Shown one piece after another: positions 977 through 64,000 of a stretch of DNA of 64,000 nucleotides; position 1 is the first letter of the stretch, and each line of letters starts with the position of its first letter. The stretch comes from Escherichia phage APCEc01. A program made the translations under genes and the position numbers. The notes beneath the pieces were generated by a model. The model saw only the letters and a program-made list of their open reading frames with translations, was not told the origin of the DNA and did not search any database. Location: the sequence record NC_029091.1, one strand, 5' to 3'.

Positions 977-3900
977 CTAATTTAACCTGTGGTGGATTCA
1001 CGGGGTCTCTTGGATTTCCTACATTATCGATTAACCGTTGTTCAACCAAATCTCTAAATCTAGAGAATGTTGTTCCGGACGCATCAAATAATGGGCTCAT
1101 CAGTTTACGTCGTTCCGATGGAAGTTGACCTTGAAATATGGAGTTATTGTTTTCAGCGTTATAATCTTCAGGTAATGGATAATCTTGACCAGCCATAGGG
1201 CCTATTTCATATATCGCTTTACCTGTAATAGGGTCAAACTCAACATTTCCTTGTGGGTCTAATTTAGCCACTCGGTCTGCATATTTAGTCGGTAATCCAG
1301 AATCCCACTTATAGTTTTTGTATTTATTAATAATGGTTTCAACATGTTTAAGTGTTAATCCGGTGTTAATAAACATTGTGAGAAGGGTAATTGCGATAAA
1401 TCCAAATCCAACCGGATGAACAAAACGTAATACGTCTGATTTCCAACGAGATGATGGAAGTTTAGATTTAATCTTCATTACGTAGTATGCTCTACCACGA
1501 TTTATGTAATCGATGTTGTTCTGAGAAAGCTCTTTACCTTTAATACCACGAACAATTTCGCCTTCAAAACCAGGGAGTCTTTCAGCTTTAACTTCCTGTC
1601 CTTGGATTAAACGACCTAAGAGGTTGTGAATTGTTACAGTCCATTGTAATTTACCTTTAGAGTAACTTCTCTCGATATACGTCACATTACAACGTCCTGT
1701 AGCGGTGTATATGGTTTGTCCGACCAAATCTTCTGTCAACGAATCAGATTCAATGATGATATCATATTCGGTCCCGGAACTAGATTCAATTTCAATTTCA
1801 ACATCTTCGTTATAAAGCACTTTAAACAAGAATTTATACGATGCTTCAGTTCCTTTAGTTGAATAGAAGTCATAACTTCTTGATTCAAAGAAACGAGACA
1901 CTAAATCGCGTTTTTCGGCGTTTAAGTAAATGTTTCGTTTATAAATCTCAGACCATAAATATTCCCACGCATGTTCTTCGCGCGGATATTGATTTTTAAT
2001 AAGATTTAAAAGGTTGTTATAATGGGTCCCATAACCGTCAGAAAGATACTGAATATAAGCCTCGCAGAATGCTTCAAAGTTTGTATTATCTAAAAGATAA
2101 GACTCCGGCATCATTGTAGTGAGCAATGGTCGTAAATCCGGGTCTGCAATACCGTCCTCTTCTACAGGAGTCCATGTGGTATCTTTTTCTTGGTTTTGTA
2201 ACGATGCTGTTAAGAATATATTAGTAGGCTTCCAAATTATAGAAACATTATCTCTAACACGATAACTAAAATCATAATAAGAAATAATCTCACCTGATGA
2301 TTTATAGAAAATCATGCCGGATGCATATTTTTTAAATCCGGCGAAATCTACGTTAGGCATCACTATTGTACAGTCACCGTCCTTCCAATATTCATGAACT
2401 TCACGGTCTGAAGAACTAAGTGGATGATTCTCAATAACCTTAGTGTAAAGTAAATCAGAATAAATTACAACAGCCTTGTCTGAGTTATTAATCCAACATC
2501 GAGTACCGGACTTTCTAGAATAACTAAAGAATGGCTCAGCATAGTATTCCATCGGTTGAGGAGTGAACGATTCCCATTGAGAGTCTTCAGTTGAAATAAA
2601 TGCCATCATATGATAATGTTTATCAGCCAACCATTCGCGAGGATACTCATATTTAACAGCACCGATTAAACCGTACTTGATTTGTGTTTTTGGGTCATCA
2701 ACAATATCCGATTCTAGAAATTTAAAATTACTAGATGAAATAGATAACTCAACACCATCAGTAGACATACTGGTGTACCCAGGTTCAATACGACGGCGTT
2801 CTTCTTCAGTATTACCAAACACACGTTTAAATGTGCCAGCATCATGGTCTAGAACGTAAACGCCCTTATCAGCAGAATCAACAATAGGAGTAGTCCTCGG
2901 GTCGTCATTAAGATTAACAACTTCACCGATAATCAGTGCAAATATTTTACCGCCGACAGAATCCATTTTATAGCAAACTGCCTTAGGGTTACCTGTGATG
3001 TTAAATGTTTCTTGTTCAAACAAACGTTCGGAATACGTCGGAGATAACGGGTCTGAATCAATAGGGGCATTACTAGTTTTAATAAAACGAACTTTATCTC
3101 GAGCAGCAACGTATACATAATCGTCATTGCAAACGATAGCTTCTGCAATACGTGACACGTTAGCAGGTAATGATGCGTAGTTACCAAATATTTCTACATC
3201 AAATCCTAAATTTAACTGGTCACCAATTTTAGCAAATGTTATATCTTGAGAACTAAATCTCACATCACCAGCAGACCAACGAACGTCAGTTGATTTACGG
3301 CCGTAAAATAATTTATCATACCCAAGAACATACGTGGTATAACCTGTCTGGTAATACACTGTTCTTGATACAGGGTACCCTACACGGTCATTAAACAATT
3401 TAACCGATTTCCAGGTTTGTCCCTTATCATTAGAGACTTTAACCACAGGCTGATACCGTTCAAACAAATAAAGAATTCCTTCGGATTCCATCAAATAAAC
3501 ACGGTTTATATCATGACACACCTGTTGAATCGAACCTTGAATTTCATGATACTCATTTTCGCCAATAATGAAATTTTTAATAGATGAAATATCCGCATAA
3601 GCAGGGCTAAATTGGAACGATTCATTCATTAGAGCTGCCATTATAGTGTCGTTATTAAAATCGACATAAGACATGTTGTTATTTGTAAATTTTTCTCTAA
3701 TAAAAGTGTTAGCCAATTGCATTTCAATCATATGTTGAAATGTATACGCGTTAGTCTGAAATGATTCAAATATTTCGGTATATACCCAATCAGATCTCTC
3801 GAAGCCTTCGGCGGCAGTTGATACACGAATAATATAAGAAGTTAATGGGTCTAAGCTACTTTCGAACCAGTTGCTATTAGGAGTATATCCTAAATTTATC

Positions 3901-4067
3901 CATCTGTAGCTGGCAGGGGGAATTATTTCCCCGTCTGCCGTTTTAGTCTCAGCGATTTCTACGAAATAGTAGAAATTAGCACCAACGTCATCCCAGCGTA
4001 TTTGAACTTGGTTAGCGGACAACTTGGATATTCTGAGACTTGTGACTGCTGGCGCTTTTACTGTCAT
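969..4067 (-). CDS. 7: baseplate wedge initiator protein gp7
   Basis: 1032-aa ORF, same length as T4 gp7, in conserved 53-5-6-7-8 order with overlapping stop/start junctions. Confidence 0.9.
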   Translation of the reverse strand: MTVKAPAVTSLRISKLSANQVQIRWDDVGANFYYFVEIAETKTADGEIIPPASYRWINLGYTPNSNWFESSLDPLTSYIIRVSTAAEGFERSDWVYTEIFESFQTNAYTFQHMIEMQLANTFIREKFTNNNMSYVDFNNDTIMAALMNESFQFSPAYADISSIKNFIIGENEYHEIQGSIQQVCHDINRVYLMESEGILYLFERYQPVVKVSNDKGQTWKSVKLFNDRVGYPVSRTVYYQTGYTTYVLGYDKLFYGRKSTDVRWSAGDVRFSSQDITFAKIGDQLNLGFDVEIFGNYASLPANVSRIAEAIVCNDDYVYVAARDKVRFIKTSNAPIDSDPLSPTYSERLFEQETFNITGNPKAVCYKMDSVGGKIFALIIGEVVNLNDDPRTTPIVDSADKGVYVLDHDAGTFKRVFGNTEEERRRIEPGYTSMSTDGVELSISSSNFKFLESDIVDDPKTQIKYGLIGAVKYEYPREWLADKHYHMMAFISTEDSQWESFTPQPMEYYAEPFFSYSRKSGTRCWINNSDKAVVIYSDLLYTKVIENHPLSSSDREVHEYWKDGDCTIVMPNVDFAGFKKYASGMIFYKSSGEIISYYDFSYRVRDNVSIIWKPTNIFLTASLQNQEKDTTWTPVEEDGIADPDLRPLLTTMMPESYLLDNTNFEAFCEAYIQYLSDGYGTHYNNLLNLIKNQYPREEHAWEYLWSEIYKRNIYLNAEKRDLVSRFFESRSYDFYSTKGTEASYKFLFKVLYNEDVEIEIESSSGTEYDIIIESDSLTEDLVGQTIYTATGRCNVTYIERSYSKGKLQWTVTIHNLLGRLIQGQEVKAERLPGFEGEIVRGIKGKELSQNNIDYINRGRAYYVMKIKSKLPSSRWKSDVLRFVHPVGFGFIAITLLTMFINTGLTLKHVETIINKYKNYKWDSGLPTKYADRVAKLDPQGNVEFDPITGKAIYEIGPMAGQDYPLPEDYNAENNNSIFQGQLPSERRKLMSPLFDASGTTFSRFRDLVEQRLIDNVGNPRDPVNPPQVKLDE

Positions 4068-6037
4068 TGTGAAATAGGCTCCAAATCTATAGTTAAGTAC
4101 TGAGGACGTAAGTCATTTTCGAATACGATTAAAGAACCATCCTTTGTAAAAATAATATCATCTGCAGGGTCGGAATAAAGTTCAATTGTTTGAACTTCAA
4201 AACGGTCTGAAGTGAGGTCAATTTTAGCAATGTTCCAATAAATCGAATCGGCAGGATAATTCACTTCACCAATTGAATAGTATTTGTTTCGTCCGTCAGT
4301 AACAGTAAGTTTATTAAAATCATTACCTGTATAAGGTTGTATATTTTCGTTTTCAACAACATCACCGTCCGCAAATGGACCAATAATAACTTGACCTATG
4401 CCACGGTCATTACGGTCAGAAGATACTATGCGAACACCATATTTAATAGTTTCGTTTGCATTTTCTGGATTAGGTCTGTGCGAATCAAACGAGAATATAT
4501 TAGATTCCATCGATCTATCTTTAATCTGATTATTGTATTTAATACCGGCCTCAGGCGTTTTATAGAAGTTTTGTACTTCGCGAACCATTTGAATAGTAGC
4601 TGAAGAACCAATAATAGAAATATCTGCATCATCGACATAAGTTAGCATTTTAGATTTTGCAAACGATGAGTTAAAAATTTCTACATCTTCAATATAATAT
4701 CGGTCAATTTTATTAATAATTTGCCCTTCAAGATATTGCTCTGATTCTTGAAGTTTATTCAACGCGTATGTAACTTTGATATTCATTTTGATAAACAAAT
4801 AATCAGGCGAAATAACAACAGGTGTAATAGTCCCTAAGTTATAATCATTCAAATAGTTTTTGATATCATCACGTTGGACAGAAGTCAAATACAATCCAGA
4901 TTTAGGCTTAGCAGCAATATATGCGTACCCTGGTTTAGATGAATCTGTGAATGTTTGAACCGCCTGAATAATAGAACCAAACCGCTCAGAAACGAATGTG
5001 TCATAGTCGGGAGCGGTTACACAACGTTGTTGAGTTTCGCGTTTAATTGTGCCTAATTCGCGGATACGTTCAATATCTTCAGGGTCACCACCGCCGTCGG
5101 CCCCAACAAAGTCTGGGTTATTGCTAGGGTTCTCATTAATATCTATTACCGTGATATTAGCTAATGTATCAGCATAAGAAAATCCTACAGCACCGTTAGC
5201 ATCTGCGCCATTAGTAGAAATATACTCAATTACGATTTTAGAACCCTGAACAGGTTTAAGGCCACCAATATAGTTAGATGTTAACGCACCTTCTGACGTG
5301 TTAATAGAGATTTCGCCTTCACCAAAATAAAATTCGGTGTTCCCATCAACTGTTTCACGCATATAATAGATTGTTGACGTAGAACCAGCGTGAACCATCG
5401 ACTTACGAGTCCAGTTAATCCATTCTGCTCCGTCAACATACAACTTAACCAAATTACGGTCAATATTCTTATCACGAATAATGATAGGTTTTAATCTATC
5501 AAATGTTAATTCAGTGCGAACAATACGTCCTTGAGCTAATCGAAGACGTGGAAAATATTGGTTATTTTTGTCTTTAACTACAATGACATCTTCAGTAGAA
5601 ACAAAGTTATACGGGTTAACAGAAGTATCTTTAGCGTATGCTAAGAAACGAGTGCCACGTGGAATGGTGATATAGTTTCTATTTAATGCATCTGTACATG
5701 TGAGCATAATTTCTGTTTGTGCTGCTGATTTAGATGAAGGCAGATATCCGTTATCTTGAGCCGCTTGTACAACAGAACTACGCAAGTTTGCAGTACGCAT
5801 AAAACTTTCATACACTGCACTATTACTGAACTGTTGGATGTAAAGAGTGTTATATGCTAAAAGGTCGCACAATACGTTTAAGCGTGAACCTTCAAAATCA
5901 TAATCAAGAAATTCATTCTGTCCATTGAGCCATTCGATAATGTTCTGTTTGATTTCGGCAAATGTGCCCCCGATAAAAATCTCGGGAATAGCATTCGCTG
6001 TTCGGGTTAATTGATAATTTACAGGAGTGTTTGCCAT
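4064..6037 (-). CDS. 6: baseplate wedge protein gp6
   Basis: ORF track 4064..6094; in-frame ATG at 6037 gives MANTPVNYQLTRTANAIPEIF..., the T4 gp6 N-terminus; 657 aa. Confidence 0.9.
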   Translation of the reverse strand: MANTPVNYQLTRTANAIPEIFIGGTFAEIKQNIIEWLNGQNEFLDYDFEGSRLNVLCDLLAYNTLYIQQFSNSAVYESFMRTANLRSSVVQAAQDNGYLPSSKSAAQTEIMLTCTDALNRNYITIPRGTRFLAYAKDTSVNPYNFVSTEDVIVVKDKNNQYFPRLRLAQGRIVRTELTFDRLKPIIIRDKNIDRNLVKLYVDGAEWINWTRKSMVHAGSTSTIYYMRETVDGNTEFYFGEGEISINTSEGALTSNYIGGLKPVQGSKIVIEYISTNGADANGAVGFSYADTLANITVIDINENPSNNPDFVGADGGGDPEDIERIRELGTIKRETQQRCVTAPDYDTFVSERFGSIIQAVQTFTDSSKPGYAYIAAKPKSGLYLTSVQRDDIKNYLNDYNLGTITPVVISPDYLFIKMNIKVTYALNKLQESEQYLEGQIINKIDRYYIEDVEIFNSSFAKSKMLTYVDDADISIIGSSATIQMVREVQNFYKTPEAGIKYNNQIKDRSMESNIFSFDSHRPNPENANETIKYGVRIVSSDRNDRGIGQVIIGPFADGDVVENENIQPYTGNDFNKLTVTDGRNKYYSIGEVNYPADSIYWNIAKIDLTSDRFEVQTIELYSDPADDIIFTKDGSLIVFENDLRPQYLTIDLEPISQ

Positions 6038-6045
6038 TTTAATTC

Positions 6046-6339
6046 CTATTTTATAAAGACTTTTGACGAGGCCTGAGAAACAGTATCCCCGCATGAAATT
6101 GGGTCAGCCATTTGAACGGCCTTTTTACCGGTGACGTATACTTTAGATGTACGAGGTTCAGTAACACCTCCATGAGTCTCGTATGGTTTTTTAATTTCTG
6201 TATGAGGTGTTATTTGGTCTCCTGCCACAAGAACAGGAATACCACCGGTGAACACTTTAGATTGGGAAGCATTTATTACAGTAGGAGGCCATGCTTCATG
6301 ACCTGTTGTAACACACTTGTCGTAACTTAAGCCAGACAT
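6046..6339 (-). CDS. 5.4: PAAR-repeat spike-tip protein gp5.4
   Basis: 97-aa product from in-frame ATG at 6339 ([19 protein letters not shown]...); size and position just downstream of gene 5 match T4 gp5.4. Confidence 0.75.
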
Positions 6340-6341
6340 TT

Positions 6342-6857
6342 TCACGGCCTCACATAAACATAGTTTCGTAATTGATGAGCCCATTTGCTCCAATTTCCTA
6401 CTATAGTTTTTGTATAAACCTTAGTAAGAGTTTTTTGTACTGGAGCCGGTGGAGGTTCTGTACCAGAGTCACTTCTAGAACCGCCTGATGAACTTTCTTC
6501 TTGGTAGTTATAAATCATTTCAACCGTATAACTAAACACTTTACGAAGATTCTGAGGAGCTCTCCACAAATATAACTGTGTGGACTCATCTTTTGGTAAA
6601 TCATCCCATGAAGATGCGGTTTCAAAATCATCATTTAATCGGTATTTCAATGCGTCCGAAGAAAAGCTAAACACACTTTCATATGTTCCATATAAACGAT
6701 TACCATCTACCGTAATGCCTTGTGTCGGTTCATAATCTGTTATATTTATTGACACTAAAGTTTCGGTTGTTTCTAACTGTGGAGTAAAAAGGGCGTCTAT
6801 TGACGCCCCTTCCATGTCTTCTCCTAAGTCGGTATTTAAAGGAAGTATTTGTGCCAT
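6342..6857 (-). CDS. conserved baseplate-region protein (gene 5.1-like by position)
   Basis: 171-aa acidic ORF packed between gene 5 and gene 5.4. Confidence 0.55.
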
Positions 6858-6860
6858 ATA

Positions 6861-8594
6861 TTACCCAATATCAATACGAGATCCGTCAACAGTGTATTGT
6901 CCTGAAGCTACTGAGCTCATTGTAGACATTGTTTCTGCCCAATCCCCGGCAACAGTCATATCAACATTACCATTAACAGTCCATTTAACGTTTCCGTTGA
7001 CGGTGTAATCATGATTCCCTTCGACCTGAGTTTTTGCATCACCTTTAACAAGAATATCTGCATTTCCGTCAACAACTATTTTGATATTACCCTTAACGTA
7101 AAGAGTTCCATCGCCTTCAACAGTTTTAGATTGATTACCACGAATAAAGATTGTGTCATTGCCGTCTATTTGATGGAGGCGGTCTGCCATGTTATAATAT
7201 ATTTCATTAGCACCAACGTTAACAAGCTTATCGCCAGAAATCAAAAAGTTCCCATCGCCATTAGTGATGTCAAAAAGGTCTTCTACAGTTTTACGAGTAC
7301 GACGCCCAGACGGAGAAACTTCCTCATATGACCCTGTTGGATGAACTAAGCGATAACGTTCATTACCTGGAGTATCGTCAAATTCTTGGATATGACCGCT
7401 TTCTGTTTCCATAGCATGAACGTATGGATACTCACCACGATAACTTGATTCCGGTTCTTTAAAAAGGATGCGTGAATCTAATGGAACAGGAGGACCAGCT
7501 GGGTCTTCTGGATCGGTATTTCTAGTAACTAAATCGGCACCAACTCCTGGTGAAGGCGGCGTTTTAACAGGAACACCATATGATTCCATGTTACCGGTTA
7601 AAATAATTGTTGTTACACGTGAAGCGCGTCCTTTAGTCTGTTGGAACCATAATGAATCGCGTCCAGATTTGTATGCAGTTTTCCAATCGCCTGCGGCCAT
7701 TGCTTTAAGCATAGTATTGAATTTTGCTACACCACCAACGCCCATTTGGAAACACATGTTTTCTAATGCCATTTGACGAGACCTGTTCATTTTAGCATAA
7801 ACAGGACCTACTTTAGAATTAGAACGAATGTCTTTCTGCATCTTAGCAAGGTCTTTCTCAAATAACGCTGTTGCTTCTTCTAATGTAATAGTTCCCGGAT
7901 TTCCTGTTACTTCACGCCCTACTTGATCGGATAACAATTTATTAATTCGAGACATATCTCGGGTCTTTTCCATTACGATAAGGTGTCCAATACCTACGGT
8001 AGGATATCCGAGATGGTCCCAATACACTTTATCACGAAGACCTTCGTCACGACGTAACATTTCTGTTATTGTAAAATTAGGGTCATCATCTTCTGGAATA
8101 TTTGCTAAATCTGTATCATCTGGGTTTATACCATAATCCAAGTTGTTATCTTGAATTACGTTAGAGTTTGAATAATAACCAGCTTCACCACCTTGGTTTA
8201 ATACGTTCGTATCATTACCTAAACGTCGTGGATACTGGCCTGTCGGGTCTGAAAAACCTTCAAGTCTATTAGGCTTTTCACGTACGATTCCACCGTATGT
8301 ACCAAGTACAATCCCGTTTGTTTTCCATTTGTCTAAGAAATGACCATATACTCGAGTTCCTTCAACAGGACCTGTAACAGAACCACCAATACCTGACATT
8401 GATGCAGACGTAATAGGTTGAATAACAGTCATCCATGGAAGTTTTTCTGTAGGAATACCTTGTACATCACCTTGTGCTCTCTGTGCTGGATGAAGACCAA
8501 CGACTCGAACTCGAACTCGCCCTTGTTTTAATGGGTCCATTCTGTCCTCGACAACACCCACGAACCAATTAAGGCTACTGCTAATCATTTCCAT
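6861..8594 (-). CDS. 5: baseplate central spike / tail lysozyme gp5
   Basis: 577-aa ORF with a T4-lysozyme-like domain (YPTVGIGHLIVMEKTRDMSRINKLLSDQVGREVTGNPGTITLEEA) and C-terminal VxGNxxxxVxGN beta-helix repeats. Confidence 0.92.
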   Translation of the reverse strand: MEMISSSLNWFVGVVEDRMDPLKQGRVRVRVVGLHPAQRAQGDVQGIPTEKLPWMTVIQPITSASMSGIGGSVTGPVEGTRVYGHFLDKWKTNGIVLGTYGGIVREKPNRLEGFSDPTGQYPRRLGNDTNVLNQGGEAGYYSNSNVIQDNNLDYGINPDDTDLANIPEDDDPNFTITEMLRRDEGLRDKVYWDHLGYPTVGIGHLIVMEKTRDMSRINKLLSDQVGREVTGNPGTITLEEATALFEKDLAKMQKDIRSNSKVGPVYAKMNRSRQMALENMCFQMGVGGVAKFNTMLKAMAAGDWKTAYKSGRDSLWFQQTKGRASRVTTIILTGNMESYGVPVKTPPSPGVGADLVTRNTDPEDPAGPPVPLDSRILFKEPESSYRGEYPYVHAMETESGHIQEFDDTPGNERYRLVHPTGSYEEVSPSGRRTRKTVEDLFDITNGDGNFLISGDKLVNVGANEIYYNMADRLHQIDGNDTIFIRGNQSKTVEGDGTLYVKGNIKIVVDGNADILVKGDAKTQVEGNHDYTVNGNVKWTVNGNVDMTVAGDWAETMSTMSSVASGQYTVDGSRIDIG

Positions 8595-14540: not shown

Positions 14541-14614
14541 GGCCCTGTAGCTCAATGGTTAGCAGCAGTCCCCTCATAAGGGAAAGGTTACCAGTTCGAA
14601 TCTGGTCTGGGTCA
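14541..14614 (+). tRNA. tRNA with CAT anticodon (Met, or Ile if C34 is modified)
   Basis: Cloverleaf: acceptor GGCCCTG/CTGGGTC, T-arm ACCAG-TTCGAAT-CTGGT, anticodon loop CTCATAA; no encoded CCA. Confidence 0.75.
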
Positions 14615-14620
14615 TATATT

Positions 14621-14697
<77 letters not shown>

Positions 14698-56698: not shown

Positions 56699-59410
56699 AT
56701 GAAAGAATTTTACTTAACGGTTGAACAGATTGGTGATTCAATTTTTGAACGTTACATCGATTCTAATGGCCGTGAACGTACTCGTGAAGTAGAATATAAA
56801 CCATCACTGTTTGCTCATTGTCCAGAAAGTCAGGCTACGAAATATTTCGATATCTACGGTAAGCCGTGTACTCGTAAGTTGTTCGCTAATATGCGTGATG
56901 CCTCCCAATGGATTAAACGCATGGAAGATATCGGACTTGAAGCACTTGGCATGGACGATTTCAAATTGGCGTATTTGTCTGACACTTATAACTATGAAAT
57001 CAAATACGACCATACAAAAATTCGTGTGGCTAACTTCGACATCGAAGTAACATCTCCGGACGGGTTCCCTGAGCCGTCACAAGCAAAACATCCGATTGAT
57101 GCTATCACCCATTATGACTCAATTGACGACAGGTTCTACGTATTTGATCTATTGAATTCTCCATATGGTAATGTAGAAGAATGGTCTATTGAAATCGCTG
57201 CTAAGCTTCAAGAACAAGGCGGTGATGAAGTTCCATCTGAAATTATCGATAAAATCATTTATATGCCGTTCGATAACGAAAAAGAATTGTTGATGGAATA
57301 TCTCAACTTCTGGCAACAGAAAACTCCTGTCATTTTGACTGGATGGAACGTTGAGTCATTTGATATTCCATATGTGTATAACCGAATCAAGAATATTTTT
57401 GGCGAATCTACTGCGAAACGTTTATCGCCACATCGTAAAACTCGTGTTAAAGTTATCGAAAACATGTATGGTTCTCGTGAAATCATTACATTGTTCGGTA
57501 TCTCTGTTCTTGATTACATTGGCCTTTACAAAAAATTCTCTTTTACCAATCAACCGTCGTATTCTCTGGATTACATTTCAGAATTTGAATTGAACGTTGG
57601 TAAACTGAAATATGACGGCCCTATTTCTAAGCTTCGTGAAAGCAATCACCAACGATATATTTCTTATAACATTATCGACGTGTATCGTGTATTGCAAATT
57701 GATGCTAAGCGTCAGTTCATCAACTTGAGCTTGGACATGGGTTATTATGCTAAGATACAGATTCAATCTGTGTTTAGCCCAATTAAAACATGGGATGCTA
57801 TTATTTTTAATAGCCTTAAAGAGCAGAACAAGGTGATTCCACAAGGTCGTTCTCACCCGGTTCAACCTTATCCCGGCGCTTTTGTTAAGGAACCTATTCC
57901 AAATCGATACAAATATGTAATGAGTTTCGACCTTACATCTCTGTATCCAAGTATTATTCGCCAAGTGAATATTAGCCCGGAAACAATAGCAGGAACGTTT
58001 AAAGTAGCTCCATTGCATGATTATATTAACGCAATCGCTGAACGTCCTTCAGATGTGTACAGTTGCTCTCCTAACGGCATGATGTATTATAAAGACCGTG
58101 ATGGTGTAGTTCCAACTGAAATCACTAAGGTCTTTAATCAACGTAAAGAACATAAAGGTTACATGCTTGCAGCTCAACGTAATGGTGAAATAATTAAAGA
58201 GGCATTGCATAATCCTAATCTTTCTGTTGACGAACCATTAGATGTTGATTATCGTTTCGACTTCAGTGATGAGATTAAAGAAAAGATTAAAAAGTTGTCT
58301 GCTAAATCTCTTAATGAAATGTTGTTTAGAGCTCAACGTACTGAAGTTGCAGGTATGACCGCACAAATTAACCGTAAATTGCTTATCAACTCACTTTATG
58401 GTGCACTTGGCAACGTTTGGTTCCGTTATTATGATTTGCGTAATGCTACTGCAATCACAACATTCGGGCAAATGGCTTTACAGTGGATTGAACGTAAAGT
58501 TAATGAATATCTGAATGAAGTTTGTGGTACAGAAGGTGAAGCTTTCGTTCTATATGGTGATACAGACTCTATTTACGTATCTGCTGATAAAATTATCGAT
58601 AAGGTTGGTGAATCTAAATTCCGTGATACCAACCATTGGGTAGACTTCTTAGATAAGTTTGCACGTGAACGTATGGAACCTGCTATTGATAGAGGTTTCC
58701 GTGAAATGTGTGAATACATGAACAATAAACAACACTTAATGTTCATGGACCGAGAAGCTATCGCTGGTCCTCCGCTCGGTTCTAAAGGTATTGGTGGATT
58801 CTGGACTGGTAAGAAACGTTATGCATTAAACGTGTGGGATATGGAAGGAACCAGATACGCTGAGCCTAAACTCAAAATCATGGGTCTAGAGACTCAGAAA
58901 TCTTCGACCCCTAAAGCAGTACAGAAAGCTCTTAAAGAATGTATTCGTCGTATGCTTCAAGAAGGTGAAGAATCATTACAAGAATATTTTAAAGAGTTTG
59001 AAAAAGAATTCCGTCAATTGAATTATATTAGCATCGCGTCGGTATCTTCTGCGAATAACATTGCTAAATACGACGTAGGTGGATTCCCGGGTCCTAAATG
59101 CCCGTTCCATATTCGTGGAATTCTGACATATAACCGAGCTATCAAAGGTAATATTGATGCACCACAAGTTGTAGAAGGTGAAAAAGTATATGTTCTGCCT
59201 TTACGTGAAGGAAACCCATTCGGTGATAAATGTATCGCATGGCCTTCTGGTACTGAAATCACAGATTTAATTAAAGACGATGTACTTCATTGGATGGACT
59301 ACACTGTTCTCCTTGAGAAGACATTTATTAAACCACTTGAAGGATTCACATCAGCAGCTAAACTCGATTACGAGAAGAAAGCATCTCTGTTCGATATGTT
59401 TGATTTTTGA
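56699..59410 (+). CDS. 43: DNA polymerase gp43 (family B, RB69-type)
   Basis: 903 aa; MKEFYLTVEQIGDSIFERYIDSNGRERTREVEYKPSLFAHCPESQATKYFDIYGKPCTRKLF..., exo motif FDIEV, pol motifs DLTSLYPS and YGDTDS, C-terminal SLFDMFDF. Confidence 0.97.
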   Translation: MKEFYLTVEQIGDSIFERYIDSNGRERTREVEYKPSLFAHCPESQATKYFDIYGKPCTRKLFANMRDASQWIKRMEDIGLEALGMDDFKLAYLSDTYNYEIKYDHTKIRVANFDIEVTSPDGFPEPSQAKHPIDAITHYDSIDDRFYVFDLLNSPYGNVEEWSIEIAAKLQEQGGDEVPSEIIDKIIYMPFDNEKELLMEYLNFWQQKTPVILTGWNVESFDIPYVYNRIKNIFGESTAKRLSPHRKTRVKVIENMYGSREIITLFGISVLDYIGLYKKFSFTNQPSYSLDYISEFELNVGKLKYDGPISKLRESNHQRYISYNIIDVYRVLQIDAKRQFINLSLDMGYYAKIQIQSVFSPIKTWDAIIFNSLKEQNKVIPQGRSHPVQPYPGAFVKEPIPNRYKYVMSFDLTSLYPSIIRQVNISPETIAGTFKVAPLHDYINAIAERPSDVYSCSPNGMMYYKDRDGVVPTEITKVFNQRKEHKGYMLAAQRNGEIIKEALHNPNLSVDEPLDVDYRFDFSDEIKEKIKKLSAKSLNEMLFRAQRTEVAGMTAQINRKLLINSLYGALGNVWFRYYDLRNATAITTFGQMALQWIERKVNEYLNEVCGTEGEAFVLYGDTDSIYVSADKIIDKVGESKFRDTNHWVDFLDKFARERMEPAIDRGFREMCEYMNNKQHLMFMDREAIAGPPLGSKGIGGFWTGKKRYALNVWDMEGTRYAEPKLKIMGLETQKSSTPKAVQKALKECIRRMLQEGEESLQEYFKEFEKEFRQLNYISIASVSSANNIAKYDVGGFPGPKCPFHIRGILTYNRAIKGNIDAPQVVEGEKVYVLPLREGNPFGDKCIAWPSGTEITDLIKDDVLHWMDYTVLLEKTFIKPLEGFTSAAKLDYEKKASLFDMFDF

Positions 59411-59450
59411 TATAATGCCAAGGACGGCCAACTAATTAAATGAGAGAAAT

Positions 59451-60086
59451 ATGAAAACTACTCCTATTACTATCGCTATTGACGCAATCGTAAAACAAGC
59501 TTCATCTCTTGCCACTATGGCTAAAGTAATTAGTCAAAACCCTGCTCGTTATAATGCTATTCTAGAAACTCTTCGACGCCCTGGACTTAGTAATTATGAA
59601 AGCCGGGTAATTATTACAGGTGTTGGTAAGAATGCTAATATCGCAACTAAAGCTTCCGAGACTTTTGCTTCACTAGGTATTCCTAGCATGTATTTGAACA
59701 CCGGGCATTATTCTCATGGTGACGCAGGATTTATTGCGCCTAATGACGTGTTGATTCATATTAGTCGTTCTGGTAAAACTGAAGAAATGATAGGTGTTGC
59801 TAAACATCTTCGTATGATTCGTCCTCAGGTTAAACAGATTCTGTTACATTGTAACCCAGACATTCCACAAGAATACGAAGCTCTTTTTGATTATACGTTC
59901 TGTACCGGTATCGCGGTAGAAGTTGACGAGAACTCTTTAGCTCCGACTATGTCCACTACATTGTTGTTAGCGCTTATCGATACGTTTGCTATCAACCTTT
60001 CGTCTGAACGTGGATTTACCTCTAATGATTTCCTTAAGTTCCATCCAGGCGGTGCACTAGGTGCCATGTTACGAGGCGAACAATGA
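59451..60086 (+). CDS. D-arabinose-5-phosphate isomerase, SIS domain only (KdsD/GutQ-like, no CBS domains)
   Basis: 211 aa; VIITGVGKNANIATKASETFASLGIPSMYLNTGHYSHGDAGFIAPNDVLIHISRSGKTEE and LAPTMSTTLLLALIDTFAINLSSERGFTSNDFLKFHPGGALG parallel the KdsD SIS domain. Confidence 0.8.
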   Translation: MKTTPITIAIDAIVKQASSLATMAKVISQNPARYNAILETLRRPGLSNYESRVIITGVGKNANIATKASETFASLGIPSMYLNTGHYSHGDAGFIAPNDVLIHISRSGKTEEMIGVAKHLRMIRPQVKQILLHCNPDIPQEYEALFDYTFCTGIAVEVDENSLAPTMSTTLLLALIDTFAINLSSERGFTSNDFLKFHPGGALGAMLRGEQ

Positions 60087-60226
60087 AAGCAATAACAATA
60101 GGACTTTTACTATTGATGCTTGTCATGACTATCTACTGGAGCTTAACGGCTCCGGTAATGATTCCAACACTTGTAATTGGATGGATTATGATTGGACTAC
60201 AAGCAAAGTATGAATGCTTTAACTAG
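60083..60226 (+). CDS. small two-helix membrane peptide
   Basis: 47-aa ORF (MKAITIGLLLLMLVMTIYWSLTAPVMIPTLVIGWIMIGLQAKYECFN); start overlaps isomerase stop (ATGA); below the ORF-track length cut-off. Confidence 0.35.
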   Translation: MKAITIGLLLLMLVMTIYWSLTAPVMIPTLVIGWIMIGLQAKYECFN

Positions 60227-60267
60227 AATAGTGTACAATACTCCTACTTACCAATGAGGACTTCAAC

Positions 60268-61953
60268 ATGAAAAAAGCTGTTATTCTTGGTGCTGGACTG
60301 GCAACTCGTTTGTATCCAATAACGCATCATATTCCTAAGGTGCTTGTTAATTATAAACAAGACACTATTCTGAGCAATTTGTATACAATTTATTCTGACC
60401 TTGGCGCAGATGAAATTATTGTAGTAGTTCATTCAAAATTTGCTGAAACTGTTCGAGCTTATTGTGAGCAAGAAGGGTTCAATGTGACTATTCGTACAGT
60501 TGATGAAGCGTATGGTTCTGCTTATGCTCTTGCTAAATTACACAAAGATTTAGACGGCCATAATGTAATTGTTAACTGGTGTGATATTATTCCTGATTTT
60601 GGTTCATGGTCTTGGAATGTTAACGCAATCTATGTTAAGGGTGACGAATGTCGATATAATTTCGACGGTGAAAATATCACTAACGTAGGTTCAACAGGTG
60701 GTAATGTTGTAGGAATTTATCAGTTCAAAGACTGGGAATTCTATATGGGTTCTACCGATGAGGAAATTCATGAATACTGCAAAGGACGTGATTTCGTAGA
60801 ATTCCTTTACGGCAGCGCATTCAATAAATCAGAGCTTATGAATATAATTGATTTAGGTGATATGCCTAAACTTGAAAAGGCTCATGAAGTTCGTGAACTT
60901 AATCGTAGTTTTAATGCAGTTGAAATTGGTGAAGAAACTGTAACTAAATTCGCATTAACCGAACAGGGTCGAGCTCTTCAGAAAGATGAGATTTCGTGGT
61001 ATTTGAAAGTGAAATCAGATTCAGTTCCTCAGTTAGTTTCTGTTAATGAAAATAACTTTGAAATGGAACGCATTAAAGGTAAGCCAGCATTTGAATATAT
61101 TAAATCCAAATCAAGTCTTGCTCGTCCACAAATTGTTGATGCAATTTTAGATGCACTGAAATTCAGCACAGACACTTATTTTGTAAGTCCTGAAACTGTT
61201 CGTCGTGATTTCACTAAAGAATTCTATACGAAAGTTATTGATCGTTGTGAAAGCATTCAACCGTTGATTGATTCATTTGGTAAAATCACACATGTGAACT
61301 ACACTAAGATTGGACGTCTGAAGCCAATGCTGAAACAAGCTTTAGAACACCTTATTCGGTATCATAACCGTTCTCAGGGACAGTACTCTGTTATTCACGG
61401 TGACCCGAACTTCAGTAATACTATGATTACTGATAACGGCGAAGTCAAGTTTATCGACCCTCGTGGATATTTTGGCGAAACCAAGATTTACGGGCCAAAA
61501 TTGTATGATGAAGCTAAAGTGCTTTATGCTGTTTCAGGTTATGATGAATTCAATGCTAATCCGACCTGGGGGCAGTTTACTATTGATGAAACAACTTGTA
61601 ATGTGACTATTAACATCAATCCATTAGTTTACAAATATGGAAAGATGAGTTCGTTTAACGAGTATCATCATTTGGCAGTGGCAATTATCTGGATTGCATT
61701 AGGTGGTTATTTCAAGAATAATCCACTTAAAGCGGTAGCCGCATATTATAAAGGTATGGAACTTCTGACTAAGCAATTACGTAACATGGGCCGTGTACTT
61801 CAGGACGGCTCTATTAGTTATGACGTAGCAGAACCTGTAACGGCTACTCTGATTACAAAAAATCCTGGTAAATGGGTACTAACTGATAAAGAAACTGGTG
61901 TTTCCTATCGTCCAATCGGTGGCGATATCACTCATCAATGGGAACGAATCTAA
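60268..61953 (+). CDS. bifunctional sugar-1-phosphate nucleotidyltransferase / sugar kinase
   Basis: 561 aa; N-terminal MKKAVILGAGLATRLYPIT is the RmlA/GalU/LicC-type G-x-G-T-R-L motif; C-terminal part has kinase motifs HGDPNFSNTMI and FIDPRGYFG (APH/choline-kinase fold). Confidence 0.75.
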   Translation: MKKAVILGAGLATRLYPITHHIPKVLVNYKQDTILSNLYTIYSDLGADEIIVVVHSKFAETVRAYCEQEGFNVTIRTVDEAYGSAYALAKLHKDLDGHNVIVNWCDIIPDFGSWSWNVNAIYVKGDECRYNFDGENITNVGSTGGNVVGIYQFKDWEFYMGSTDEEIHEYCKGRDFVEFLYGSAFNKSELMNIIDLGDMPKLEKAHEVRELNRSFNAVEIGEETVTKFALTEQGRALQKDEISWYLKVKSDSVPQLVSVNENNFEMERIKGKPAFEYIKSKSSLARPQIVDAILDALKFSTDTYFVSPETVRRDFTKEFYTKVIDRCESIQPLIDSFGKITHVNYTKIGRLKPMLKQALEHLIRYHNRSQGQYSVIHGDPNFSNTMITDNGEVKFIDPRGYFGETKIYGPKLYDEAKVLYAVSGYDEFNANPTWGQFTIDETTCNVTININPLVYKYGKMSSFNEYHHLAVAIIWIALGGYFKNNPLKAVAAYYKGMELLTKQLRNMGRVLQDGSISYDVAEPVTATLITKNPGKWVLTDKETGVSYRPIGGDITHQWERI

Positions 61954-62339
61954 TGCACCGTGTAGAAAACATGCTTAATCTTTGTTTTGATGTCGATGAT
62001 TGTATAACAGAGTGGAATAACAATCGTGATTACGTGAACTTCAAACCTGACGTCGAAATGGTGTCTGCCATTAATGCCCTGTATGATGCAGGGCATACCA
62101 TAACGCTTTACACTGCTCGCGGTATGAAGTCAGTAGGTCCTGGTCGTATAGCAATTGACATTCTCCCAAGTCTTATTCAGAACTTGGCAAACATTGGCTT
62201 GAAGTACCATAATTTGCTAACACATAAACCAGTATATGATTGGATTATCGACGACAAAGCTATGCGTCCTGACGAATTCAAAGCTCTTATGAATAAAGGC
62301 GAATTCGAAACATTTAAATCATATAAACCGAATCTATAA
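61953..62339 (+). CDS. small HAD-superfamily phosphatase
   Basis: 128-aa product from ATG overlapping the upstream stop (TAATG); HAD motifs FDVDDCIT, TLYTARG, K, WIIDDK. Confidence 0.7.
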   Translation: MHRVENMLNLCFDVDDCITEWNNNRDYVNFKPDVEMVSAINALYDAGHTITLYTARGMKSVGPGRIAIDILPSLIQNLANIGLKYHNLLTHKPVYDWIIDDKAMRPDEFKALMNKGEFETFKSYKPNL

Positions 62340-62399
62340 TAATTTAAGTAAGACCTGCAAAAAAAAACCATCGCATCAATTAACGCGAGATGCAAAAAA

Positions 62400-63560
62400 A
62401 TGAATACTTTTAAAATCGGAACGAATTTTGATTTAGCTCTTCTTGATAAAATCGTAGAGCTCAATAAAACTTATCCTAATAGCTTGATAAATGAAGTATA
62501 CGGCTCTACAAGAGAAATGGCTTTTGTAGCAGCCAGACCTGATTTTAGGCTTCCTGACGTTGACAAAAAGATGTTAGAAGATTACGTTAAACGTTGTAAC
62601 GAATTAGGTATTTGCTTTAACTATACACTCAACACGATAAATCCTGGTTCAAAAAGAGAACTAGTTGAGTGGAAGAAGAAAGCTATTCAGGATTATGTTC
62701 AGTATCTTTGGTCAATAGGCGTATGGCGTATTACTATCGCTAACCCTGTTGTTATGGAAATTGTTCGTGAAGTCAATAAAGACATTGAGATTGAAGTTTC
62801 AACAATTCTACATGTCGATGCTGTAACTCAAATCAAATACTTGCATGACCAATATAATATCAAAAAGGTCTGCTGTGGAATTCATAAGAACCGTTCAGTT
62901 TCTTTCCTGAAGCGTGCAGCAGAGTTTTGCAATAAGAACAATATAATATTTGAAGTTCTTGTAAATGAGTTCTGTTCTAATGCTGGTAAAGGGTATACAA
63001 CACATTGTAGCTATCGTGACTCTTGCTATATTTTCCATAGTACTGATGTTACAGCTGATGATGCTAAATCCTTAAACGGATATCCTATGCAGCACTGTAT
63101 TAAAGCTCGTGATACAGACCCATTTAACTGGTTGAGAACTCGTTTTGTTCGTCCTCAAGATTTGAAACTTTATAATGATATTGGTATCACTCAATTCAAA
63201 GTTTCAGGACGTACAGGTAGCACAGACTACATTTTGAAAGTTCTTGAAGCATACGCTTCTGAAAAGTTTGAAGGTAATTTGTTAGAACTGTGGAAGCCTT
63301 TAGAGACTATTTTCACTCTTGAAAACGAAACTGAGTTTTCACATACAGTAAATATTGAAACCTCTTTGTTAGATGGCTTTTTAGAAAAAAGGTGGTTCAG
63401 ACATCCAGATTTCGATTGTGCTAATGAAATCTGCGGGACGACGTGTACATATTGTGAAAGATATTATAAACGTCAATTATCTAAAAACGGGTTAGCAGAA
63501 AACTCTATATCTATTATTGATATAACTAACTCTGATGACGCTTTGAGGTACCCGGAATGA
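62400..63560 (+). CDS. peptidase U32 family protein (Fe-S, RlhA/TrhP/UbiU-like)
   Basis: 386 aa; ANPVVMEIVREVNKDIEIEVSTILHVDAVTQIKYLH...IIFEVLVNEFCSNAGKGYTTHCSYRDSCY parallels the U32 core; extra C-terminal CANEICGTTCTYC cluster; assignment from memory, not HMM-verified. Confidence 0.5.
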   Translation: MNTFKIGTNFDLALLDKIVELNKTYPNSLINEVYGSTREMAFVAARPDFRLPDVDKKMLEDYVKRCNELGICFNYTLNTINPGSKRELVEWKKKAIQDYVQYLWSIGVWRITIANPVVMEIVREVNKDIEIEVSTILHVDAVTQIKYLHDQYNIKKVCCGIHKNRSVSFLKRAAEFCNKNNIIFEVLVNEFCSNAGKGYTTHCSYRDSCYIFHSTDVTADDAKSLNGYPMQHCIKARDTDPFNWLRTRFVRPQDLKLYNDIGITQFKVSGRTGSTDYILKVLEAYASEKFEGNLLELWKPLETIFTLENETEFSHTVNIETSLLDGFLEKRWFRHPDFDCANEICGTTCTYCERYYKRQLSKNGLAENSISIIDITNSDDALRYPE

Positions 63561-63796
63561 TTTCTAGAAAAACTTTTAACCACCAACTTAATGAAGAGAT
63601 TTTGACTATGAAACTGAACACTAATGAACAAATTCTTAAAAAGGCCCATCAGGGCCTTTTTGAAACTAAAGCGGCTAAAGTGATTAAAGAACCTGTTCAA
63701 TTAGAATACTACGCTGATGCATTTCTTCATAGTGTTCTTGGAAGTATCGATGCCGAAGCTTTACGTTATATCAATATTGCCAAGAAATTCAAATAA
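63557..63796 (+). CDS. hypothetical protein
   Basis: 79-aa ORF, start overlaps upstream stop. Confidence 0.5.
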   Translation: MISRKTFNHQLNEEILTMKLNTNEQILKKAHQGLFETKAAKVIKEPVQLEYYADAFLHSVLGSIDAEALRYINIAKKFK

Positions 63797-63820
63797 GCTT
63801 TACGAATTGAGTATATAATA
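63794..63820 (+). promoter_or_regulatory. MotA-dependent middle promoter candidate
   Basis: TAAGCTTTA box ending 63802, 11 nt, TATAAT at 63814-63819. Confidence 0.5.
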
Positions 63821-63837
63821 ATTGTATTGAGGTAAAC

Positions 63838-64000
63838 ATGGGAAAACATAACACAATGAAATATATCAAAGCCGCAGATTTTCAAACCGCATTTAAAGCA
63901 GTCAATCGTGAAATTTTAGAAAACCCGGAATTCGTAACTGATTCTCGTATTGGACGTTGTAATGAAATTGGGTCTATGACAGTAGTTGTTGACACTCCAT
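63838..64000 (+). CDS. 42: dCMP hydroxymethylase (gene 42-like), 5' part only
   Basis: Partial ORF MGKHNTMKYIKAADFQTAFKAVNREILENPEFVTDSRIGRCNEIGSMTVVVDTP; EFVTD...IG...VVVDTP loosely parallels T4 gp42 DFVVDKTGVKTIEIIGASFVADEP; runs off window. Confidence 0.5.
   Translation, partial: MGKHNTMKYIKAADFQTAFKAVNREILENPEFVTDSRIGRCNEIGSMTVVVDTP

Follow-up and report, generated by a model that had tools for sequence, protein, structure and literature searches.

The window analysed here is a stretch of 64,000 nucleotides of Escherichia phage APCEc01 (NC_029091.1), to which all coordinates refer, and the element in question is the open reading frame (ORF) at 61953-62339 on its plus strand. Judged by its sequence, this ORF encodes AfhF, an enzyme that is already known and has been crystallised. 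Very probably AfhF is a Mg2+-dependent, cap-less phosphatase of the HAD type that removes the 5-phosphate of D-arabinofuranose-1,5-bisphosphate to give D-arabinofuranose-1-phosphate, as the third of four steps towards uridine diphosphate (UDP)-D-arabinofuranose. The window belongs to a phage of the RB69-like Mosigvirus type, since its positions 59400-64000 (4.6 kb) are 95-99% identical to about 150 Mosigvirus genomes, with Shigella phage JK42 as the best nucleotide match (99.1% over the 4.6 kb). A T4-type replication module (sliding clamp, clamp loader gp44/gp62, RegA and gp43 DNA polymerase) lies near afhF, and the genes of the arabinose cluster follow on the plus strand downstream of gp43, in an order that agrees with the annotations of phages JK42 and Bas47. 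The features are the following:

59451..60086, plus strand: arabinose-5-phosphate isomerase, SIS-only, KdsD/KpsF-like, without CBS domains (Pfam SIS; NCBIfam; PDB; PHROG 5670).
60083..60226, plus strand: hydrophobic ORF of 47 amino acids, predicted small membrane protein (translation; annotated in JK42, Bas47, CHI14 and LC53).
60268..61953, plus strand: AfhE-like bifunctional enzyme of 561 amino acids, with an N-terminal sugar-1-phosphate nucleotidyltransferase and a C-terminal APH/choline-kinase-like kinase.
61951..61955, plus strand: TAATG stop/start overlap of the afhE-like gene and afhF (read from the sequence).
61953..62339, plus strand: AfhF, cap-less (C0) HAD phosphatase of 128 amino acids.
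62400..63560, plus strand: U32-family protein with a Cys-rich C-terminus (Pfam Peptidase_U32 42.2 bits, cut-off 22.4; PHROG 5757).
63557..63796, plus strand: ORF of 79 amino acids, in Mosigvirus-like phages only, at the position of a chorismate mutase in other genera.
63838..64000, plus strand: first part of a thymidylate-synthase-like gene that continues beyond the window (translation; synteny with JK42 and Bas47).

Residues 1-128 of the window protein are 100% identical to residues 7-134 of PDB entry 9IQW, the AfhF of Escherichia phage HY126, whose title reads 'D-arabinose 1,5-diphosphate phosphatase AfhF'. The start codon is that of the crystallised construct and there is no detectable difference between the two enzymes, so only the phage isolate may differ; the identical protein is encoded by many Mosigvirus genomes. 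HY126 AfhF (RB69 gp51 = ORF051c, DLP3 gp81) also has the same genomic context, namely isomerase, AfhE-like nucleotidyltransferase/kinase and HAD protein, and in the window this neighbourhood is accompanied by the ThyA-like gene of a 5-hydroxy-deoxycytidine monophosphate (5-hydroxy-dCMP) synthase. The equation of RB69 gp51 with AfhF is made in a passage of PMC13326640, a NAR paper of 2026 on RB69 and DLP3. The role of the gene is thus already settled by the crystal structure and by published biochemistry, and no new biology is added here; a candidate UDP-arabinose module was named earlier by Thomas et al. 2018 (PMC6024577), and the 2021 record of Bas47 annotates afhF as "putative phosphatase". 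The value of the present work is that the gene was spotted correctly and that the order of the reactions was corrected to kinase, then phosphatase.

An earlier note on this DNA, made from its letters, had described a cap-less HAD-core protein of 128 amino acids with all four HAD motifs, and this description was borne out. The motifs are D13-x-D15 (I), T54 (II), K92 (III) and D100-D101 (IV); all six residues are invariant across 18 homologues (down to 35% identity) and align with their counterparts in the HAD-fold structure 1xpj (DLDGT, T, K, DD). Motif I reads D13-V-D15-D-C-I-T here and DIDNTIT in the homologues, and is recognised as the DxDx(T/V) phosphatase signature. R56, H48, H86 and Y95 are invariant as well and are candidates for binding the 1-phosphate. 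By the HAD paradigm, D13 would be the nucleophile that forms an aspartyl-phosphate and D15 the general acid/base, while T54 and K92 would bind the phosphoryl group and D100 and D101 the Mg2+ ion. The protein has the Rossmannoid HAD core fold, and in the predicted model T54 is placed after the strand 49-53. Between D15 and T54 there are 38 residues and between T54 and K92 there are 37, and in the model these stretches contain core helices and strands only. Since the protein has 128 amino acids and fewer than 40 residues from one motif to the next, a C1 or C2 cap could not be accommodated, and its size and the predicted model place AfhF in the cap-less C0 class.

In the most probable pathway, which has been published, the SIS isomerase (59451-60086) would convert host ribulose-5-phosphate to arabinose-5-phosphate (A5P), the AfhE-like protein (60268-61953) would phosphorylate C1 with its C-terminal kinase domain, AfhF would remove the 5-phosphate, and the N-terminal nucleotidyltransferase domain of AfhE would produce UDP-arabinofuranose. 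DNA arabinosyltransferases would then use this nucleotide sugar to glycosylate 5-hydroxycytosine in the phage DNA. The identity with 9IQW and the conservation of the motifs come from this analysis; for the substrate, the step order and the Mg2+ dependence we rely on the literature and on the title of the PDB entry. In its section 27, PMC13326640 reports from He et al. 2026 that AfhF is a Mg2+-dependent phosphatase converting arabinofuranose-1,5-bisphosphate to arabinofuranose-1-phosphate, and that AfhE combines an A5P kinase with a UDP-arabinose pyrophosphorylase; our assignment of function to the AfhE-like protein is taken from the same section. In the order of He et al. as relayed there, the isomerase makes arabinofuranose-5-phosphate from ribulose-5-phosphate, the C-terminal kinase of AfhE makes the 1,5-bisphosphate, AfhF removes the 5-phosphate, and the N-terminal domain of AfhE yields UDP-arabinofuranose. 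The same account states that arabinosyltransferases then decorate 5-hydroxycytosine in DNA, the base being made as 5-hydroxy-dCMP by a thymidylate-synthase homologue.

The role suggested earlier has to be revised on exactly this point: the arabinose pathway, the enzyme class and the phosphate at C5 were right, and the order and the substrate were not (PDB 9IQW title; PMC13326640). In the earlier note the HAD enzyme dephosphorylated A5P to free D-arabinose before the kinase phosphorylated C1, whereas the published order leads from A5P to arabinose-1,5-bisphosphate and only then to arabinose-1-phosphate. The dephosphorylation of A5P as the first of the two steps is nonetheless backed by general knowledge of two kinds, namely that anomeric sugar kinases of APH-like fold commonly use free sugars and that HAD phosphatases are promiscuous. 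It also stands in print: Table 1 of PMC13326640 lists exactly this reaction for RB69 gp51 and DLP3 gp81, and because the table still carries it, this order was a reasonable prior. We nevertheless regard it as quite unlikely, as the bisphosphate is the substrate given in the PDB title and the text of PMC13326640, in the section concerned, adopts the kinase-first order after He et al. Free D-arabinose would moreover be expected to equilibrate mostly to the pyranose, whereas the DNA carries the furanose.

The sugars of RB69 DNA are D-arabinofuranose, as determined by nuclear magnetic resonance. We infer from the chemistry that a 5-phosphate would keep the sugar in the furanose form and stop the ring from expanding to a pyranose before C1 is fixed; the arabinofuranose of RB69 DNA fits a 5-phosphate that is retained until then, which favours kinase before phosphatase. 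In ADP-heptose synthesis the layout consists of GmhA, an SIS isomerase, HldE, a kinase fused to a nucleotidyltransferase, and GmhB, a cap-less HAD phosphatase. The kinase-first order is favoured because the phage cluster mirrors this layout of isomerase, kinase/nucleotidyltransferase and HAD enzyme, whose logic speaks against phosphatase action on A5P. It is favoured, too, because cyanophage homologues of AfhF sit between a carbohydrate kinase and a nucleotidyltransferase, by a heptose epimerase, a place that corresponds to that of GmhB in the heptose pathway.

Several points weigh against this assignment of AfhF. The predicted model is weak near motif IV, where the ten-residue block 91-100 has a mean predicted local distance difference test (pLDDT) score of 64. 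Pfam gave no match for the afhF ORF even at E 0.1, and the TIGR01689 model of NCBIfam (EcbF-BcbF capsule biosynthesis phosphatase) scored 49.5 bits (E 3.8e-13) with a cut-off of 162, so that no curated family model assigns a function to AfhF. HAD phosphatases are often promiscuous, and activity on A5P or on other sugar phosphates is possible. Substrate and step order are taken from the PDB title and from a secondary account of He et al. 2026 (Nat Chem Biol) in the sections cited from PMC13326640, and Table 1 of that paper still labels RB69 gp51 'dephosphorylates Araf5p to Ara'. A literature search for AfhF/HY126 and for LC53 returned secondary mentions only, and a transposon-mutagenesis preprint holds no essentiality data on these genes.

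As for family placement, the structural neighbours of the protein after 9IQW were, in ranked order, 1xpj (13.2), the phosphatase domains of PNKP (9.6 and 9.3), GmhB (8.7 and 6.8) and HisB-N (7.5). The 1xpj protein (Vibrio cholerae APC26283) and TIGR01689 represent a relative, of which AfhF is not a member by the curated threshold: its score is far below the subfamily cut-off, and, as far as the tools show, the family's own substrate has not been characterised. AfhF works in the manner of GmhB, the D-glycero-D-manno-heptose-1,7-bisphosphate 7-phosphatase, but is not a member of that family either. The identity between the two is about 11-17%, GmhB has about 155-190 amino acids and the phage protein 128, the substrate of GmhB is a heptopyranose and that of AfhF a pentofuranose, and the HAD-IIIA model gave only 14.7 bits with a cut-off of 44.6.

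Matches to nucleotidases could be taken to mean that the enzyme trims the pool of deoxynucleoside monophosphates, e.g., dCMP or 5-hydroxy-dCMP. These matches, however, reflect the generic HAD core at 9-15% identity, the published substrate is a sugar bisphosphate, and afhF is linked to the nucleotidyltransferase/kinase gene at every T4-like phage locus examined, so we hold such a nucleotidase to be extremely unlikely. PHROG 1238, which is labelled "phosphoheptose isomerase", matches the afhF product at E 1e-42, and this mislabel explains why the product is misnamed in many phage records. The names 'phosphoheptose isomerase' and 'capsule biosynthesis protein' have spread across phage records for this HAD phosphatase and are worth correcting.

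The gene begins on the stop codon of its upstream neighbour, as had been noted. The TAA stop of the 561-amino-acid ORF lies at 61951-61953, and its last A is at the same time the first letter of the ATG at 61953-61955, so that TAATG stands at 61951-61955; the frame then runs from 61953 to a TAA at 62337-62339, that is 387 nucleotides coding for 128 amino acids and the stop. Other ATG codons in frame are found at 61938, which is the start in the ORF listing and gives a form of 133 amino acids, and at 61971. We favour 61953 because it is the annotated start in JK42 and the start of the crystallised construct, which reads ...H-M-HRVEN and begins at this Met after a ...H-M cloning remnant, and because HRVEN and the TAATG of phage IME08 are kept. 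Relatives of 64-84% identity retain HRVEN after the 61953 Met, and the TAATG junction is also present in JK42, Bas47 and the Dhakavirus IME08. The Bas47 record uses the 133-amino-acid form starting at 61938; this start was rejected, as the extra residues are absent from the crystallised construct. The start at 61971 was rejected as well, having no Shine-Dalgarno match, yet many homologues begin there. Many of the more distant homologues start at the Met8 position, and residues 1-7 are therefore a lineage-specific extension; in the model the first seven residues have low confidence.

The Shine-Dalgarno site at 61953 is weak, at -4.2 kcal/mol as compared with -6.0 to -6.9 for local genes that have GAGG-type sites. 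Overlapping junctions of afhE and afhF are found in Mosigvirus and Dhakavirus (TAATG in both) and in Winklervirus (17 nucleotides), whereas Acinetobacter phage Acj9 has a spacer of 57 nucleotides with its own GAGGA site. Translation of afhF is probably tied to that of AfhE by the stop/start overlap, with which the weak Shine-Dalgarno site and the overlapping junctions in three genera are consistent. Such coupling would suit AfhF, whose step falls between the two reactions of its upstream neighbour.

By tblastn, afhF is present in 382 phage records, 57 of which are from Acinetobacter phages; with this spread and the solved structure of its product, afhF is no chance reading frame. The order isomerase, nucleotidyltransferase/kinase and HAD protein is kept in Mosigvirus, Winklervirus and Acinetobacter phages, and Dhakavirus keeps the pair of nucleotidyltransferase/kinase and HAD protein. 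The locus of the Dhakavirus IME08, an Escherichia phage (locus L004, 2261-6996), carries genes for a nucleotidyltransferase/kinase, the HAD protein (TAATG), a kinase-like protein, a ThyA-like protein and a glycosyltransferase, and is without the SIS isomerase and the U32 gene. As this locus has no SIS isomerase, host KdsD or GutQ presumably supplies the A5P there.

Cyanophage homologues, 35-38% identical and mis-annotated as 'phosphoheptose isomerase', were found in Synechococcus phages S-SSM7 (locus L006, 2829-5215) and S-CAM3 (locus L007, 3855-5909). A carbohydrate kinase is encoded near these mini-HADs, and their immediate neighbours are a small nucleotidyltransferase and a heptose/nucleotide-sugar epimerase; in S-CAM3 the mini-HAD is directly between kinase and nucleotidyltransferase. 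This setting suggests that the cyanophage mini-HAD has the role of GmhB in a heptose-type nucleotide-sugar pathway.

Cellular relatives were surveyed with one genome per species, which gave 34 loci. Bacterial or archaeal homologues of 29-42% identity made up 30 of them, with one phage-like locus and three short marginal matches. At 18 loci of Chitinophagales/Sphingobacteriales the mini-HAD gene is followed immediately by an SIS-only KdsD-like gene, and the gene of 3-deoxy-D-manno-octulosonate (Kdo)-8-phosphate synthase (KdsA) comes next in all 15 loci where the contig reaches far enough; the KdsA-type gene of locus L012, for example (operon at 5980-7704), scores 371 bits with a cut-off of 242. 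At eight other loci (Methylococcales, Planctomycetota, Spirosomataceae, Peregrinibacteria and others) a PseF/KdsB-like cytidylyltransferase lies upstream of the mini-HAD and in frame with it; in locus L009 (3543-4568) one ORF was confirmed to span the two. Cellular mini-HADs thus occupy the KdsC position of ulosonic-acid pathways.

To this extent the comparison with KdsC that the earlier note had recommended finds an echo in evolution. KdsC (YrbI) is, like AfhF, a cap-less HAD sugar-phosphate phosphatase downstream of A5P metabolism, but AfhF did not fall into the KdsC/YrbI family by sequence or by close structure, and KdsC, in which a neighbouring subunit serves as the cap, is only remotely related to it and structurally more distant than the PNKP phosphatase domains and GmhB. 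One could still suppose that the phage enzyme is a phosphatase of Kdo-8-phosphate or of another ulosonate phosphate, an analogue of KdsC acting on precursors of the host lipopolysaccharide. Its bacterial relatives of 30-42% identity do share their operons with bona fide KdsA and a KdsD-like SIS isomerase (the 15 loci), and at the other eight they are apparently fused to the cytidylyltransferase. The phage cluster, however, is without KdsA or KdsB and has an anomeric kinase/uridylyltransferase as its neighbour, E. coli has a KdsC of its own as a matter of general knowledge, and the identical protein has been characterised as an arabinose bisphosphate phosphatase. Action of the phage protein on Kdo-8-phosphate is accordingly very improbable in our view, and we retain arabinofuranose-1,5-bisphosphate as its substrate.

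What the Kdo operons may reveal is the origin of the family. The phage isomerase is likewise SIS-only, which suggests that phages took the isomerase and phosphatase as a pair from a Kdo-type operon. To hypothesize further, though somewhat doubtfully, the phage enzyme may come from a mini-HAD family, unrelated to YrbI, of unrecognised Kdo-8-phosphate/ulosonate-phosphate phosphatases in Chitinophagales, Planctomycetota, Methylococcales and others; T4-like phages may have captured SIS isomerase and mini-HAD together and retuned the latter to arabinofuranose-1,5-bisphosphate, with the cyanophage copies retuned again for a heptose-type bisphosphate. This apparent origin in bacterial Kdo operons is one of two leads from the locus, the other being a pair of U32 and chorismate-mutase genes.

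The interest of the pathway as a whole lies in the DNA that it serves, as afhF belongs to a pathway that replaces cytosine by arabinosylated 5-hydroxycytosine in RB69-like phages. Many restriction enzymes and CRISPR nucleases are blocked by this modified base; type IV systems, for their part, recognise it. The upstream enzymes of the cluster are placed as follows. The isomerase (59451-60086) scored 111 bits with the kpsF model and 106 bits with the KdsD model of NCBIfam, and matched PDB entries 3etn, 5uqi and 2xhz, the best being 3etn, the enzyme of Bacteroides fragilis. In the AfhE-like protein, Pfam NTP_transferase covers residues 3-99 and matches to kinase families at 308-409 are weak; it also has sugar-1-phosphate nucleotidyltransferase matches in NCBIfam and is matched by PHROG 4098 over its full length. 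At the far end, the gene starting at 63838 is labelled dCMP hydroxymethylase in records; its homologue, RB69 gp48, is described in a passage of PMC13326640 as 5-hydroxy-dCMP synthase.

The U32 gene between afhF and the ThyA-like gene was found in 220 phage records, in all of which it is at least 80% identical, and the listed host genera are all enterobacterial or Shewanella. No Acinetobacter record is among these 220, though 57 Acinetobacter phages carry the phosphatase, and a sequence comparison with the PDB gave no relative of the U32 protein. In 54 non-Mosigvirus records the ThyA-like gene adjoins a gene for a CM_2 chorismate mutase (44.6 bits, cut-off 27), and in phages LC53, CHI14 and F48 the mutase gene lies between the U32 and ThyA-like genes, directly after U32. 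The two genes together span 3492-5002 in locus L042 and 5503-7013 in locus L003.

The characterised U32 proteins which are not proteases, RlhA, TrhP and UbiU/V, hydroxylate independently of oxygen and have a link to prephenate; RlhA acts on C5 of a cytosine. By analogy, the pairing of U32 with chorismate mutase suggests a prephenate-dependent, O2-independent C5 hydroxylase like RlhA/TrhP. A passage of PMC13326640 states that the phage 5-hydroxy-dCMP synthase requires O2, and another cites the work on RlhA and TrhP as other routes of pyrimidine hydroxylation. Since the relatives of U32 are independent of O2 and the synthase needs it, the U32 route may possibly be an anaerobic back-up path to 5-hydroxycytosine, which is a testable idea. 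Table 1 of the same paper lists the U32 gene as "sugar or heterocycle reductase". A link between U32 and hydroxylation in the phage cluster was not found in our literature search, and He et al. may address it.

In the window, the position of the chorismate mutase is taken by the 79-amino-acid ORF (63557-63796), which overlaps the stop of the U32 gene. The homologues found are without exception close, at 82-99% identity; those with a name are Escherichia phage or E. coli records, and some relatives are truncated to 47-58 amino acids. The possibility that it is a diverged chorismate mutase was considered and is not supported: Pfam returned nothing at E 10, BLASTP gave E 0.14 and hhalign a probability of 0.1%. 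The AlphaFold2 model is a helical hairpin of low confidence (pLDDT 72, predicted template modelling score 0.45), for which Foldseek gave no match with E < 1.

The 47-amino-acid ORF (60083-60226) overlaps the isomerase stop with its start as ATGA. It is very hydrophobic, with two predicted membrane segments, and is kept at the same place in Serratia phages CHI14 (66% identity) and LC53; it would be a small membrane protein within a cytoplasmic sugar-nucleotide operon.

In a promoter and terminator scan of 59300-64000 the counts were not above those of shuffled sequence. One promoter-like site, TTTAAA-16-TATAAT at 62313-62340, was seen in this region, where promoter-like counts are not above the shuffled control. 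The spacer between the HAD and U32 genes (62340-62399) contains a 7-bp hairpin, TCGCATC...GCGA, between A-runs, and differs from JK42 by a 4-nucleotide indel. Scans of the whole window for tRNA genes and Rfam families gave nothing beyond two adjacent tRNAs on the plus strand, tRNA-Met (CAT) and tRNA-Arg (TCT) at 14541-14697, which were found by ARAGORN and confirmed by Rfam.

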